A stretch of DNA of 64,000 nucleotides from NCBI GenBank assembly GCA_037189845.1, contig JBBCIS010000003.1:385477-449476 (forward strand), in the 5' to 3' direction. Origin of the DNA: a bacterium (GTDB lineage: Bacteria; Bacteroidota; Bacteroidia; Chitinophagales; JADIYW01). A model generated the notes under the pieces. It made no database searches. It saw nothing but the letters and a program-made list of their open reading frames with translations, and was not told the DNA's origin. The first letter of the stretch is position 1; each line of letters starts with the position of its first letter. Of the stretch, positions 10,840-61,923 are shown one piece after another. A program made the translations under genes and the position numbers.

Positions 10840-10975
10840 CTCATGCTACTATAATGGTCAAACAAATACCGACAGACTTCCTGAAAAGAGCTGTCGCAGG
10901 GTAGTCGACAAATATATTGTTGAGATATATTTTAAAAAATAGCCATTTTAGCTATTTTTTAAAGATAAAGTGCGC

Positions 10976-18072: not shown

Positions 18073-18108
18073 ATATACAAACCCAGTGAGCCTTACGGCT
18101 CACTGGGT
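18073..18108 (+). terminator. intrinsic terminator
   Basis: CCCAGTGAGCC-TTAC-GGCTCACTGGG perfect 11-bp stem followed by TTTTTGTTTT. Confidence 0.85.
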
Positions 18109-18357
18109 TTTTGTTTTATGGAACTTCAGGAGGTATTATACCGATGGCCATTCAATATAGATCAATCCCGATTCACTTTGTTTTCGGGATTACGTTACTC
18201 TTCATTTCAACTCCGTTTAATTGGTATAGTTTGTTGTTCTCCCGACTTTTTAGATAAAATATGGATAAAATGCAGATATTTTATATTTTTATGTTTATCC
18301 TGAGCATCGCGAAGGGTAGCATTTTTGAAAAAAATATGAATAAAATATGAATAAAAT

Positions 18358-30890: not shown

Positions 30891-30950
30891 GTTTAAAGTC
30901 TAAGGTTTAAAGTTTGCTCACGCAACGATTGAAAACCTTAGACTTTAAAC
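30891..30950. promoter_or_regulatory. 18-bp perfect inverted repeat GTTTAAAGTCTAAGGTTT-N24-AAACCTTAGACTTTAAAC between the flotillin and giant-ATPase genes
   Basis: Arms at 30891-30908 and 30933-30950 are exact reverse complements. No U-tract follows on the coding (minus) strand. Adjacent direct repeats AAGGTTTAAAGT x2. Confidence 0.6.
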
Positions 30951-33188: not shown

Positions 33189-33848
33189 TTAGTCTTGTAA
33201 TACATTTTGAACAGTAATCTCCGGAATGACCCAGTAGTATTTTCCTCCGTCTCCTTCATCTACCAGCATAACCTCTGCATTATATGAAATACGTTGTTTT
33301 GATTTACTTTTTACCAAAACCCTGATAACATCTTTCATAATGATAACTTCAGCATATCCCAGCTTGTCTCCTTCGATAGTAGATTTCATAAATCCTGTCC
33401 GCCCGATCAGCTCATGTGCTTCTTCGCCATTATATCCCATTGTTTTATACACTTTGATGAGTGGTTTGGTGGCCCATCTGGTCAAAAAATATGCAATGAA
33501 AAAAACCGGTAACAATATCAAAGCAGACTTCCAGCCCCATGCACCGATGTTCCAGATCATAGAAGCAGCTAAAGTAAACAACCAGGAAATCAGCTTGAAT
33601 GTACTGAGGACGACCATTATCGGCACTTTACCTACGTTAATAAATTCCAGCGCTTTGGAAAAAAAAGATGGTTCTGCGCCGTCAAGATCTGTGTCTACAT
33701 CTAATCCTTCCGGTGCTCCTACATCCAGGTCTCCCAGAAAATCTCCTGAAACGAATGTGACTAACCAATATATAGCAGACAGTCCTACTAAAGCCGTCAT
33801 GATAGCATTCGGTAAAGGGTCAAACAGATAGCTGATAATTGTTACCAT
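33189..33848 (-). CDS. NfeD-like membrane protein (YuaF/YqiJ-type, C-terminal OB-fold)
   Basis: Multi-TM N-terminus; C-terminal ...GDKLGYAEVIIMKDVIRVLVKSKSKQRISYNAEVMLVDE beta-barrel pattern. Sits immediately upstream of the flotillin gene, as in yuaF-floT / yqiJK. Confidence 0.65.
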   Translation of the reverse strand: MVTIISYLFDPLPNAIMTALVGLSAIYWLVTFVSGDFLGDLDVGAPEGLDVDTDLDGAEPSFFSKALEFINVGKVPIMVVLSTFKLISWLFTLAASMIWNIGAWGWKSALILLPVFFIAYFLTRWATKPLIKVYKTMGYNGEEAHELIGRTGFMKSTIEGDKLGYAEVIIMKDVIRVLVKSKSKQRISYNAEVMLVDEGDGGKYYWVIPEITVQNVLQD

Positions 33849-33867: not shown

Positions 33868-34566
33868 TTACATACCCAGCTTGCTTTTGATTTCCGCAAG
33901 CTCTTTTTGAATAGAAAACCGATCATCTTTACAGATCTCGTCTATTTCATCTTTCACGCTGTGCTGAGCCTGAGCAATTTCTCCATACGCTTTAGCGAGT
34001 GCTTCCTGATCTTCAACTTTATCTTTCATTCTCTCCAGCATAGAAATCGTACTGTTGCTTTCAATCTGAGCGATTTGCTTATTCACCTGTTGTGTAGCAG
34101 CACTCACTTTGACTCTTGCACGTAACGTTTTCAGCTCCTTTTCCCATTTCGCCAGATTTTCTTTCAAGATCTGGATATTCTTCAGCATCTCTACTCCGGT
34201 CTGCTCATGAGTTTCCGCTTGTTGACCCAGCATTTCCGCATCCTCCAGATATTTTCTTTTCAGCGAAAGTGCCTCTGTTGCCAATTGCTCGGCTTTTTCA
34301 ATTTCCAGTTCCTGATCCTGTGCTTTTTTCAAAATCAGGATCGCCTTGTCTCCATAACTGACAGATTCCTTTTCACAGTGTGTCTGCTCATTTCGGGCAC
34401 GGATGCCCAAAGCTTTTACTCTGGCATACGCCTCTGTCGCTTGTGTCAAATCTTCTCTCAATTCTCTCAAACCCTGCTCTGTCATCTTCACAGGATCTTC
34501 CATTTTTTCTACAGCGGCATGAATCTCTGCCTGACCGATTCGAAATAATCTCTTGAAAATATTCAT
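33868..34566 (-). CDS. pspA: PspA/IM30 (ESCRT-III superfamily) protein
   Basis: MNIFKRLFRIGQAEIHAAVEKMEDPVKMTEQGLRELREDL aligns with the PspA/Vipp1 N-terminus (E. coli [28 protein letters not shown]); all-helical; 232 aa. Confidence 0.85.
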   Translation of the reverse strand: MNIFKRLFRIGQAEIHAAVEKMEDPVKMTEQGLRELREDLTQATEAYARVKALGIRARNEQTHCEKESVSYGDKAILILKKAQDQELEIEKAEQLATEALSLKRKYLEDAEMLGQQAETHEQTGVEMLKNIQILKENLAKWEKELKTLRARVKVSAATQQVNKQIAQIESNSTISMLERMKDKVEDQEALAKAYGEIAQAQHSVKDEIDEICKDDRFSIQKELAEIKSKLGM

Positions 34567-34585: not shown

Positions 34586-34984
34586 TTATCGTTTAGAAAA
34601 ATATATTATCTGCTCTCTGTATTCATAGAGTAGTAACCCTAATGAGTTCAGTGCAGCTTCCAGCTCGTTGAAATCCATATTCTCAATCTGCATGGTATAC
34701 CTGTACAAAACTTTATCACCCTCTTCGTTGATCACAAAGGCCCCATGCAGCATATCCCTGTTTTTCTGCAGCAATGCCTTGAACATTTCAAGATTATCTT
34801 CCTTGAATGAAAAGAGATAATACTCCATGATCAACAAGGGTGGCACTACGCCAATAATCAGATTCCTGATTCCGTCCTGCTCATTCTCAATTTTCATGAT
34901 TCCGGACAACTCATCTGCATAAGTCACTTTGTACTCTGCCTGGTGAATCAACTCCCTGATTTTATCCATGTATGATACTCTCAT
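34586..34984 (-). CDS. YbjN/DUF2170-like (type III secretion chaperone-fold) small protein, PspA-adjacent
   Basis: ~133 aa from Met MRVSYMDKIREL. Size, alpha/beta pattern and position next to pspA resemble E. coli yjfI-yjfJ and YbjN-family proteins. The ORF-track N-extension to 35074 is rejected. Confidence 0.45.
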   Translation of the reverse strand: MRVSYMDKIRELIHQAEYKVTYADELSGIMKIENEQDGIRNLIIGVVPPLLIMEYYLFSFKEDNLEMFKALLQKNRDMLHGAFVINEEGDKVLYRYTMQIENMDFNELEAALNSLGLLLYEYREQIIYFSKR

Positions 34985-35051
34985 AGGCAATTTATTTTTA
35001 GATTGAAAATATTGCTTACCTTTAAGCATAATAAAATTAGCAAAAAATATT

Positions 35052-35078
35052 TTAATTGCAAATATTTTTTGCAATTAA
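35052..35078. promoter_or_regulatory. perfect palindromic operator TTAATTGCAAA-N5-TTTGCAATTAA in the divergent promoter between the XRE regulator and the PspA cluster
   Basis: 11-bp arms are exact reverse complements. Additional half-site-like AATTAGCAAAA (35033) and AATTAGCACAT (35087, overlapping the XRE start codon). Confidence 0.7.
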
Positions 35079-35097
35079 GGAAAAATAATTAGCACAT

Positions 35098-35775
35098 ATG
35101 ACAAAGTTCGGTGTAAATATTAAGAAAATCAGGAAGACAAAAGGGCTAAGCCAACAGTCTCTTGCCGATATTTTCAATATTACCAGGGGGAACATCTCTT
35201 CTTATGAAGATAACCGCGCTGAGCCCAGACTAGAAACTATTATATCAATTGCTAATTATTTTGGCATTACAATTGAAAAATTATTAACAAAAGACCTCAC
35301 TATTAATGAGATCCTGCAGTTCAATTCAGATAAAATCATAGAAGATGAACAGAGATTGAGCAATCTGAAGCTGAAAGATGTTTATTTTATTAGCGATGAT
35401 ATTTTAGCAAAAGGCCTGCATCAGGATATCAGCTTTGAGGATTTTGACCAGTTTCCGCTTATTAAAATTCCGGACACCAGCACTTCATCTATTATCGCAT
35501 TGAGCTTCAATTCTAATATCCCGCATCATCAATATTTTGAGCAGTTTCCTTTAAATGATTTGTTGTTTTTCAGAAATATAGACCCTGCAAATATTCATCT
35601 TCTGGATCAGAAAATGGGGATGTCACTGAGTTCTCATAGCATTGTTTTAGGTCAATTTATTCAAGAACCTGATCAGGAAATTACTTTTTTTCTGAATCAG
35701 CAGTATCAGGAAAAAGTGGACTTGCAACAGACCAAGAGATACTGGAAGTTATTTGCCAGCTACAAGCATTTATAG
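35098..35775 (+). CDS. XRE (Cro/cI-type) HTH transcriptional regulator with uncharacterised C-terminal domain
   Basis: N-terminal IKKIRKTKGLSQQSLADIFNITRGNISSYEDNRAEPRLETIISIANYFGITIEKLL is a canonical XRE HTH; 225 aa. Confidence 0.8.
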   Translation: MTKFGVNIKKIRKTKGLSQQSLADIFNITRGNISSYEDNRAEPRLETIISIANYFGITIEKLLTKDLTINEILQFNSDKIIEDEQRLSNLKLKDVYFISDDILAKGLHQDISFEDFDQFPLIKIPDTSTSSIIALSFNSNIPHHQYFEQFPLNDLLFFRNIDPANIHLLDQKMGMSLSSHSIVLGQFIQEPDQEITFFLNQQYQEKVDLQQTKRYWKLFASYKHL

Positions 35776-53476: not shown

Positions 53477-53650
53477 TTTCAGGACTCTTGTTAAAAATAC
53501 AGATTATCTGAAAAGATGGCTAACGAACGGCAGATTTTGTCCCTTTTGCATTTGAATAAGCGGTGATACAAAATTATTTTGTCCAATATTTACTCTTTTT
53601 ATATATTATAATACTGCAAAAATATTTATAAATTCAGCAAATCTTATTTT

Positions 53651-55198: not shown

Positions 55199-55216
55199 TC
55201 ACTAAACAATATGTAA

Positions 55217-55250
55217 ATGAGGAGCTGCAGTTGTGGCTCCTCATTTTTTT
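55217..55250 (+). terminator. intrinsic terminator
   Basis: ATGAGGAGC-N10-GCTCCTCAT followed by TTTTTTT. Confidence 0.8.
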
Positions 55251-61882: not shown

Positions 61883-61923
61883 TAAAAAATGCCTCTGTTA
61901 TTATTAAACAGAGGCATTTTTAT
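61883..61923. terminator. bidirectional intrinsic terminator between msrA and sucB
   Basis: AATGCCTCTGTT-N7-AACAGAGGCATT 12-bp stem with A-tract upstream and T-tract downstream. Confidence 0.8.

Follow-up and report, generated by a model that had tools for sequence, protein, structure and literature searches.

Auxiliary operators that lie within genes are known from lac (O2 in lacZ), gal (OI in galE) and purR (O2 in the purR coding region), and the properties of lambda CI and its operators OR and OL, with which we also compare, are established knowledge. PspA/IM30 systems have so far been studied mainly in Proteobacteria, Firmicutes and Actinobacteria. In the PspF-pspABC system of Gammaproteobacteria the regulator gene is divergent from the pspA operon and the two share a central control region (PMC11237479). 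The same paper describes, by comparative genomics only, an operon class in which CesT/Tir and PspA genes are combined with band-7/flotillin, AAA+ and YqiJ/YuaF genes (Ravi et al., 2024, mSystems, PMC11237479), and its section on this operon class names no XRE regulator or operator. Here we describe a palindrome in a 64,000-nt stretch of a genome from the Bacteroidota (Chitinophagales, JADIYW01; GenBank assembly GCA_037189845.1, contig JBBCIS010000003.1, positions 385,477 to 449,476; hereafter the window, with position 1 as its first letter). The palindrome is located between the gene for an XRE-family regulator (xre, 35098-35775, plus strand) and divergent CesT/YbjN, PspA, YqiJ, flotillin and AAA+ genes on the minus strand. 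We consider it probable that the palindrome is the primary operator, called O1, of the adjacent CI-like regulator, and the sequence comparisons suggest that O1 is very probably the switch for this membrane-stress gene cluster. Full-text searches of the literature found no description of this regulator or site.

Based on direct reading of the sequence and on a repeat finder, the palindrome is a perfect inverted repeat with the arms TTAATTGCAAA (35052-35062) and TTTGCAATTAA (35068-35078), which are 100% complementary and separated by the 5-nt spacer TATTT. A first-pass annotation, made from the sequence alone, had described this 11-bp-arm repeat correctly, and the distances of about 20 and 70 bp that it gave also hold: 19 nt separate the palindrome from the XRE ATG, and 67 nt separate it from the conserved start of the CesT/YbjN-like gene at 34984. 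No second copy of the 27-mer was found in the 64 kb at up to 3 mismatches, and 100 dinucleotide shuffles gave 0 matches. Counted with arms of 11 nt or more and spacers of 10 nt or less, the window has six distinct perfect inverted repeats, against 0.25 expected under a first-order Markov model, and two of the six overlap each other at the O1 region. The 17-bp core of O1 scored 30.8 of a possible 31.2 bits with a position weight matrix (PWM) built from other loci, which was the top score in the window. As for further targets in the 64 kb, only O1 and an intragenic site at 35250-35266 were found at up to one mismatch, and the next PWM match reached 9.7 bits at 53615.

The core of O1 was compared among 80 loci, one genome per species, with the window added to give 81. 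These loci were fetched partly through the peptide [TS]RGNISSYE, the full-length regulator homologues span 36-63% identity across Bacteroidota, and the lineages in the set are Chitinophagaceae, Cytophagales, Sphingobacteriaceae, Weeksellaceae and Tannerellaceae. Divergent CesT/YbjN-PspA-YqiJ-flotillin genes were found upstream of xre in 79/80 loci, and the motif TGCWAA-N5-TTWGCA, with at most 1-2 mismatches and a start 22-55 nt before the XRE ATG, was present in 80 of the 81; in the window it starts at -41 and has 0 mismatches. A hexamer count that assumed no motif returned the same half-sites at the top, with TGCAAA in 73/77 regions (7-fold over control) and TTAGCA and TTGCAA each enriched 12-fold. 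The site's conservation, the synteny and the matrix score give strong comparative support to the earlier proposal that a dimeric XRE protein has its operator here, between the divergent promoters. The locus without the upstream motif, L073, is a Bacteroidales contig from a metagenome-assembled genome and the sole fetched locus in which the xre homologue is not adjacent to the PspA cluster. It retains the intragenic site, and its 1328 nt of available upstream sequence hold only a 2-mismatch site at -108.

Among 62 distinct sites, no variation was seen at T1, G2, C3, A5, A6, T12, T13, G15, C16 and A17; position 4/14 holds either A or T, and the spacer consists almost entirely of A/T. The spacing of 5 nt between the half-sites is constant in all related sites, which places the half-site centres 11 bp apart. 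Complementarity of the outer 5 pairs of the 11-bp arms was no better than in shuffled sequences, pairing over the whole 11-pair helix amounted to 70.2% of cells compared to 69.5% in shuffles, and position 4/14 was unpaired in 38/62 sites with no compensatory pattern. The perfection of the 11-bp arms, to which the first-pass annotation had drawn attention, is thus real in the window, whereas beyond its lineage the inner 6 bp of each arm alone are conserved. Because only these 6-bp arm cores and an A/T spacer are kept, with no covariation in pairing, the conserved object is, as judged from the alignments, a 17-bp sequence-specific protein site with the geometry of a dimeric helix-turn-helix (HTH) protein rather than a hairpin. 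A symmetric variant, TGCTAA-N5-TTAGCA, was seen in the Empedobacter/Algoriella group.

A second, operator-like site, O_int, lies inside xre, 193 bp from O1, and had not been recorded in the first-pass annotation. It is the strongest secondary site, the sole other one with at most one mismatch in the 64 kb, and scored 23.9 bits. About 70 of the 80 loci have it at one and the same codon position (locus coordinate 4153 in L001-L080), and when the upstream 200 nt were set aside, 70/80 of the sites with at most one mismatch in 711 kb of sequence were at this position. Codon choice under O_int is narrow. Ile51 is ATT in 77/79 sequences, while other Ile columns are mixed; codon 54 (Tyr/His) is NAT in 79/79; and residue 56, which varies between S, C, G and N, is always encoded by NNC (AGC 36, TGC 21, GGC 19, AAC 5) and never by TCN, AGT, TGT or GGA/T/G. 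Normalised synonymous diversity was 0.12 at codon 51 and 0.37, 0.0, 0.33 and 0.0 at codons 53-56, and elsewhere in xre mostly 0.7-1.0, with lower values (0.42-0.61) at Ser18, Phe22, Ala6 and Phe26. After dereplication to 37 sequences, Ile51 was still ATT in 35/36 (p=3e-15) and the third base of codon 56 was C in 37/37 (p=6e-25), and the peptide patterns used for fetching loci do not cover codons 51-57. O_int is held by strong synonymous-site constraint, beyond what the protein motif alone accounts for. We also considered an internal -7 box (TATTTTTG) at this position and rejected it, as the invariant T of codon 51 and C of codon 56 fall outside that motif and the third T of TTTG is present in 21/81 sequences only. 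Start-to-start distances from the upstream sites to O_int cluster at 174-177, 183-184, 192-195, 203-207, 214-217 and 223-225 bp, a pattern which suggests helical phasing with a period of about 10.5 bp.

The xre gene encodes a regulator with an N-terminal HTH_3 domain (PF01381, E=8.6e-13) followed by about 160 residues without a Pfam match. An AlphaFold model built on a 97-sequence alignment, with a predicted local distance difference test score (pLDDT) of 87.5, contains the HTH, a long linker helix and a beta-rich C-terminal domain, and the top full-length Foldseek matches were the lambda-186 hybrid repressor, LexA, lambda CI and 186 CI. The protein thus models as a two-domain regulator of the lambda CI/LexA type, with an HTH and an S24-like C-terminal domain. 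By sequence, the HTH alone matches solved structures, with CylR2 and C.BclI as the best, and the C-terminal domain shares 5-17% sequence identity with CI or LexA. No Pfam Peptidase_S24 match to the regulator was found, and no family-level NCBIfam model, with HTH matches below threshold only. Ser136, the best candidate for the catalytic Ser, and Lys172 are the putative counterparts of the LexA dyad; among 97 sequences, position 136 is mostly S (65), with T (18), G (6) and Q (5) as variants, and position 172 is K in 90/97. Nor was a conserved Ala-Gly cleavage site seen in the linker. RecA-type self-cleavage is unlikely, because the candidate Ser is unconserved and both the Ala-Gly site and a Peptidase_S24 match are missing, and we therefore rejected the reading of the C-terminal domain as a self-cleaving S24 protease with a conserved Ser-Lys dyad. 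The recognition helix RGNISSYE is invariant in the 97 homologues and in this it parallels the invariant half-site. In the C-terminal domain N138, N140, H143, H144, D154, N165, H167 and H224 are nearly invariant, and a metal or some other ligand may bind where these conserved His, Asp and Asn residues cluster.

The position of O1 relative to the promoters was assessed with the Bacteroidetes sigma-A motif, in which a -33 TTTG or TTG is said, after Bayley et al. 2000 and Chen et al. 2007, to lie about 19-21 nt upstream of the -7 box. The -7 box has the form TAnnTTTG and is found at -12 to -5 (PMC9723704). In about 52-56 related loci (56 in the minus-strand count) an exact minus-strand TAnnTTTG has its G 32-34 nt to the left of the operator centre, and in about 52 relatives, among them most of L003-L060, an exact plus-strand box has its G 38-39 nt to the right of the centre. 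With only 5-8 nt between the end of the plus-strand box and the xre ATG, most relatives are predicted to make an xre mRNA that has almost no leader or none at all. Relative to the predicted starts, which would be about 5 nt past the boxes, O1 would be centred near -39 on the cluster side and near -43 on the xre side. In most relatives the cluster promoter would take its -33 TTTG from the CAAA of the left half-site, which is separated from the -7 box by a 20-nt spacer, and a conserved TTG directly after the right half-site would be the -33 of xre, with a 19-nt spacer; the right half of the site itself is 24 nt from the plus-strand -7 box.

The window belongs to a subgroup of four (with L001, L002 and L025) in which the operator is 11 bp nearer the ATG than in most relatives and the plus-strand box before the xre ATG is absent. 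Its probable cluster -7 box, read from 35039 to 35032, is at -33 from the O1 centre and 19 nt from the CAAA of O1, which predicts a minus-strand start near 35027; L001 and L002 have an exact box on the minus strand at the homologous place (TAATTTTG; CAAAATTA). Two imperfect candidates for an xre box, TACCTTTA (35017-35024) and TATTTTTTG (35063-35071), were noted and neither was adopted. The first of them, a plus-strand block kept throughout the subgroup (TATCTTTA in L002 and L025), resembles the xre -7 box of the relatives yet precedes the operator, and may represent either an xre promoter that has moved or a piece of the ybjN leader. The second inverted repeat that overlaps the palindrome has perfect 13-nt arms, GCAAAAAATATTT (35040-35052) and AAATATTTTTTGC (35060-35072), and read outward each arm is like a -7 box plus one extra base, as in TATTTTTTG. 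A scan for sigma-70-type promoters stayed at chance level (25 found, 26 expected) and was discarded as inapplicable to this phylum.

In the mechanism that we consider most likely on the sequence evidence, O1 is the operator of a dimeric repressor and autoregulator that is assisted by an auxiliary intragenic site. A dimer would bind both half-sites, the centres of which are one helical turn apart, between two divergent sigma-A promoters. The left half (TTTGCA on the minus strand) would supply or overlap the -33 TTTG of the cesT/ybjN-pspA-yqiJ(-flotillin-AAA+) promoter, so that an occupied O1 would exclude RNA polymerase and keep the cluster repressed, and the same bound dimer would abut or overlap the regulator's own promoter and thereby provide autoregulation. 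O_int, and possibly the site at +21 (35078-35094), may make binding cooperative, with C-terminal domains in contact as they are in lambda CI, and possibly also allow a loop that would span about 190-205 bp. Induction could take place when a membrane-stress signal inactivates or sequesters the regulator through its C-terminal domain. The sign of regulation is the least secure step of the proposed mechanism. A bolder version, which we put forward tentatively and regard as rather doubtful, is a domesticated lambda-switch-like circuit for membrane homeostasis, with a non-cleaving regulator of CI/LexA fold, one operator, divergent promoters and a loop to a dual-coded second operator. Such a circuit would repress a membrane-repair operon of PspA (ESCRT-III-like), flotillin and AAA+ proteins and control its own leaderless mRNA, and the signal would reach the regulator either through its histidine-rich C-terminal domain or through its capture by PspA or by the CesT-like partner.

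Several points weigh against O1 as a repressor operator of the adjacent regulator. An operator near -40 also fits class II activators and lambda CI at OR2/PRM, and both PspF and ClgR are described as positive regulators of pspA. For ClgR, a role as repressor has been suggested as well (PMC11237479). The promoter assignments throughout are motif matches; the divergent promoter region of the window holds no exact TAnnTTTG box on either strand, and with O1 at its shifted distance of 11 bp nearer the ATG the xre promoter could not be placed there. Since [TS]RGNISSYE was among the means of retrieval, the recognition helix is invariant by construction in the loci fetched with it, and the clustering of the O_int distances rests on few independent lineages. 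Finally, the binder of O1 could be another conserved DNA-binding protein encoded elsewhere, which we regard as improbable for the reasons given below.

The best of the other explanations is that the XRE protein acts as an activator, which from a position near -40 would recruit RNA polymerase to one or both of the divergent promoters, so that the cluster is switched on by stress. This is unlikely in our view, yet it agrees with the predicted distances of O1 from the two starts (centres at about -39 and -43) and with the fact that O1 ends just before the conserved TTG of xre, which fits a -33 located 19 nt from the -7 box. The nearly leaderless xre mRNA predicted in most loci can likewise be likened to the lambda cI mRNA from PRM. 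An activator is harder to reconcile with the left half-site, which contains the -33 TTTG of the cluster, so that the regulator and sigma region 4 would be rivals for these bases, and with the intragenic site and the extra sites between -33 and -7, which are typical of repression.

O1 could also be bound by some other transcription factor encoded elsewhere while the XRE protein targets something else, since co-occurrence of the site with xre is inseparable from its co-occurrence with the PspA cluster. What makes this improbable is that a 17-bp site with two-fold symmetry and half-sites one helical turn apart fits a dimeric HTH of the Cro/CI type, that a copy lies inside xre itself while no other cluster gene encodes a DNA-binding domain by Pfam, and that the motif is confined to this locus within the 64 kb. 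Similarly improbable, and slightly more so, is that the inverted repeat is a by-product of back-to-back sigma-A TTTG elements in an AT-rich divergent promoter region of a Bacteroidetes genome. Each half-site does contain TTTG or CAAA, and in most loci the left half is 20 nt from the minus-strand -7 box. However, the invariant GCA trinucleotides lie outside the -33 consensus, the right half is mostly TTAGCA and at 24 nt from the plus-strand -7 box falls outside the usual spacing, a separate TTG is already present 19 nt from that box, the half-site spacing of 5 nt never varies, and the 17-mer recurs under synonymous constraint in coding sequence, where no promoter element is expected. The weakest reading, a hairpin in RNA or DNA (5' untranslated region structure, attenuator or terminator), is hardly credible and was rejected, for although the 11-bp arms fold at about -10.5 kcal/mol, the z-score of -2.15 is unremarkable and 7/200 shuffles fold as well, the pair counts given above stay at shuffle level with the five outer pairs unmaintained, no T-tract follows the stem, no Rfam match rose above noise, and the site would be untranscribed in most relatives, where it precedes both predicted starts.

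The first-pass annotation had also named two half-sites flanking the palindrome and read them as signs of cooperative or autoregulatory binding, and this part fared less well. The left one, AATTAGCAAAA, lies at 35035-35045 and not at 35033-35043, and the right one, AATTAGCACAT (35087-35097), adjoins the XRE ATG (35098-35100) without overlapping it. Their shared octamer AATTRGCA was not enriched in the window (8 found, 9.8 expected), and a repeated half-site of this sequence was rejected as being at chance frequency. The left half-site is conserved in the four-member subgroup only, where the block AAAATTAGCA (35033-35042) is invariant, while other relatives lack it, and it mostly coincides with the probable -7 box of the PspA-operon promoter. 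No partner half at the proper 5-nt spacing is conserved in the subgroup alignment, and the spacing in the window would be 6 nt instead of 5; its interpretation as part of a full site was dropped. Even among the closest relatives (L001, L002 and L025) the right half-site is not kept, and it is at best the right half of the weak 2-mismatch site at 35078-35094. That site starts 21 bp from O1 and reached 7.2 bits, the fourth best score in the 64 kb and below the training range; the closest relatives do not share its sequence. At +21, 16/77 loci carry a weak site, and this is the sole offset at which many relatives have one.

Two upstream sites occur in 16/81 loci, spaced by 21, 30-32 or 40 bp, which are approximately whole helical turns. 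Two full operators 30-32 or 40 bp apart, for instance TGCACATATTCTTTGCA and TGCAAAAATATTTTGCA, were seen in loci of Sphingobacterium (L062, L064-L066, L068, L072, L074-L076) and of Tannerella/Bacteroides (L070, L071, L079). Cooperative binding within the regulator family is plausible from these arrangements, and the two named half-sites are weak evidence for it.

The divergent gene cluster and the other features are listed in the table below. The start of the CesT/YbjN-like gene at 34984 (132 aa) is the one conserved in the subgroup alignment; the public gene call starts at 35029 (147 aa) and so extends into the promoter region 34985-35029. The flotillin-like protein of 691 aa has 67-87% identity to the syntenic gene of related loci, and its assignment to band-7/flotillin is inferred from the operon class in PMC11237479. 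The ybjN, pspA and yqiJ genes are separated by gaps of 19 nt, and gaps of 150 nt and 125 nt precede the flotillin-like and the AAA+ gene, respectively; neither an exact -7 box nor a minus-strand terminator-like site was found in these two larger gaps. The earlier suggestion that the palindrome is the control point of the whole cluster is therefore plausible for ybjN-pspA-yqiJ and less well founded for the two genes behind the larger gaps.

Features of the operator region and the divergent gene cluster, in window coordinates
Feature	Position	Strand	Remarks
DUF3686 + DUF7902 + AAA+ ATPase gene, 1615 aa	25990..30837	-	Pfam; last cluster gene
Flotillin-like/coiled-coil membrane protein gene, 691 aa	30963..33038	-	faint NCBIfam FloT match; synteny
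YqiJ-like membrane protein gene	33189..33848	-	weak YqiJ_N match below curated cutoff; synteny
PspA/IM30 gene	33868..34566	-	Pfam PF04012, E=7e-37; synteny
CesT_Tir_1/YbjN-like gene	34586..34984	-	Pfam PF22550, E=2e-43; first gene of divergent operon
Probable -7 box of PspA-operon promoter, TAATTTTA	35032..35039	-	7/8 TAnnTTTG matches; role inferred
Perfect 11-bp-arm palindrome	35052..35078		outer 5 bp per arm a lineage-specific extension of O1
Core of putative primary operator O1, TGCAAA-TATTT-TTTGCA	35057..35073		family consensus TGCWAA-N5(A/T)-TTWGCA
Candidate weak secondary site, AGGAAA-AATAA-TTAGCA	35078..35094		2 mismatches, starts 21 bp from O1
xre gene, 225-aa regulator	35098..35775	+	HTH_3 residues 8-62, linker helix, beta-rich C-terminal domain
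O_int, TGCTAATTATTTTGGCA	35250..35266		xre codons 51-57 (I-A-N-Y-F-G-I), 193 bp from O1

Additionally, the 125-nt gap contains an 18-nt perfect inverted repeat, GTTTAAAGTCTAAGGTTT (30891-30908) and AAACCTTAGACTTTAAAC (30933-30950), with the arms 24 nt apart, which could act in attenuation or processing, or be a repeat element within the cluster. The remaining perfect inverted repeats in the window with arms of 11 nt or longer are located at 10932-10962, 18079-18110, 55215-55246 and 61888-61918, and two of these four have G+C-rich arms, such as AAACCCAGTGAGCC-TTAC-GGCTCACTGGGTTT at 18079.

What is new here is a widely conserved cis-element together with a candidate regulator for the CesT-PspA-flotillin-AAA+ operon class in Bacteroidota. 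This makes the induction signal and the regulon testable, as well as promoter mechanics in a phylum that departs from the sigma-70 model, and O_int offers a natural case of a protein-coding segment that is also under constraint at the level of DNA.

Compared with described systems, the locus is most readily set beside lambda CI with OR and OL. Both combine a Cro/CI HTH with a LexA-like beta C-terminal domain (modelled here), a 17-bp pseudo-symmetric operator between divergent promoters, a regulator mRNA that is nearly leaderless (predicted here, in most relatives), and extra sites at whole-turn spacings with a distant auxiliary site suiting looping. In contrast to lambda, the gene here is chromosomal and lies beside a membrane-stress cluster instead of a prophage immunity region, the protein has no conserved Ser-Lys dyad, Ala-Gly site or Peptidase_S24 match, and the auxiliary site is in the regulator's own coding sequence, 193-205 bp away, compared to 2.4 kb in lambda. 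With the auxiliary intragenic operators the locus shares a weaker second copy in downstream coding sequence at a distance that suits looping or a roadblock, and with purR O2 in particular the position inside the regulator's own gene. It differs from them in that O_int shares its bases with codons for a conserved helix in the DNA-binding domain of the regulator itself and is documented by comparative synonymous-site constraint alone.

Among PspA systems, the cluster genes match by Pfam the neighbourhood described for the CesT/Tir-PspA operon class (Ravi et al., 2024). In the actinobacterial clgR-pspA-pspM-pspN operon an XRE protein is likewise coupled to PspA, but the likeness extends only to the generic HTH, which by sequence is closer to CylR2 and C.BclI. 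ClgR is small, has a single domain and is co-transcribed with pspA, whereas the regulator described here has 225 aa and an S24-like domain, is divergent, and is accompanied by other partner genes (CesT/YbjN, YqiJ, flotillin-like, AAA+). PspF, an activator, combines a sigma-54 enhancer-binding AAA+ domain with a Fis-type HTH, whereas the regulator here has only HTH_3-type Pfam matches. The xre product and O1 thus fall outside the self-cleaving LexA/CI proteins, ClgR and PspF, and their sequences point to an autoregulated Cro/CI-type regulator with a palindromic operator.

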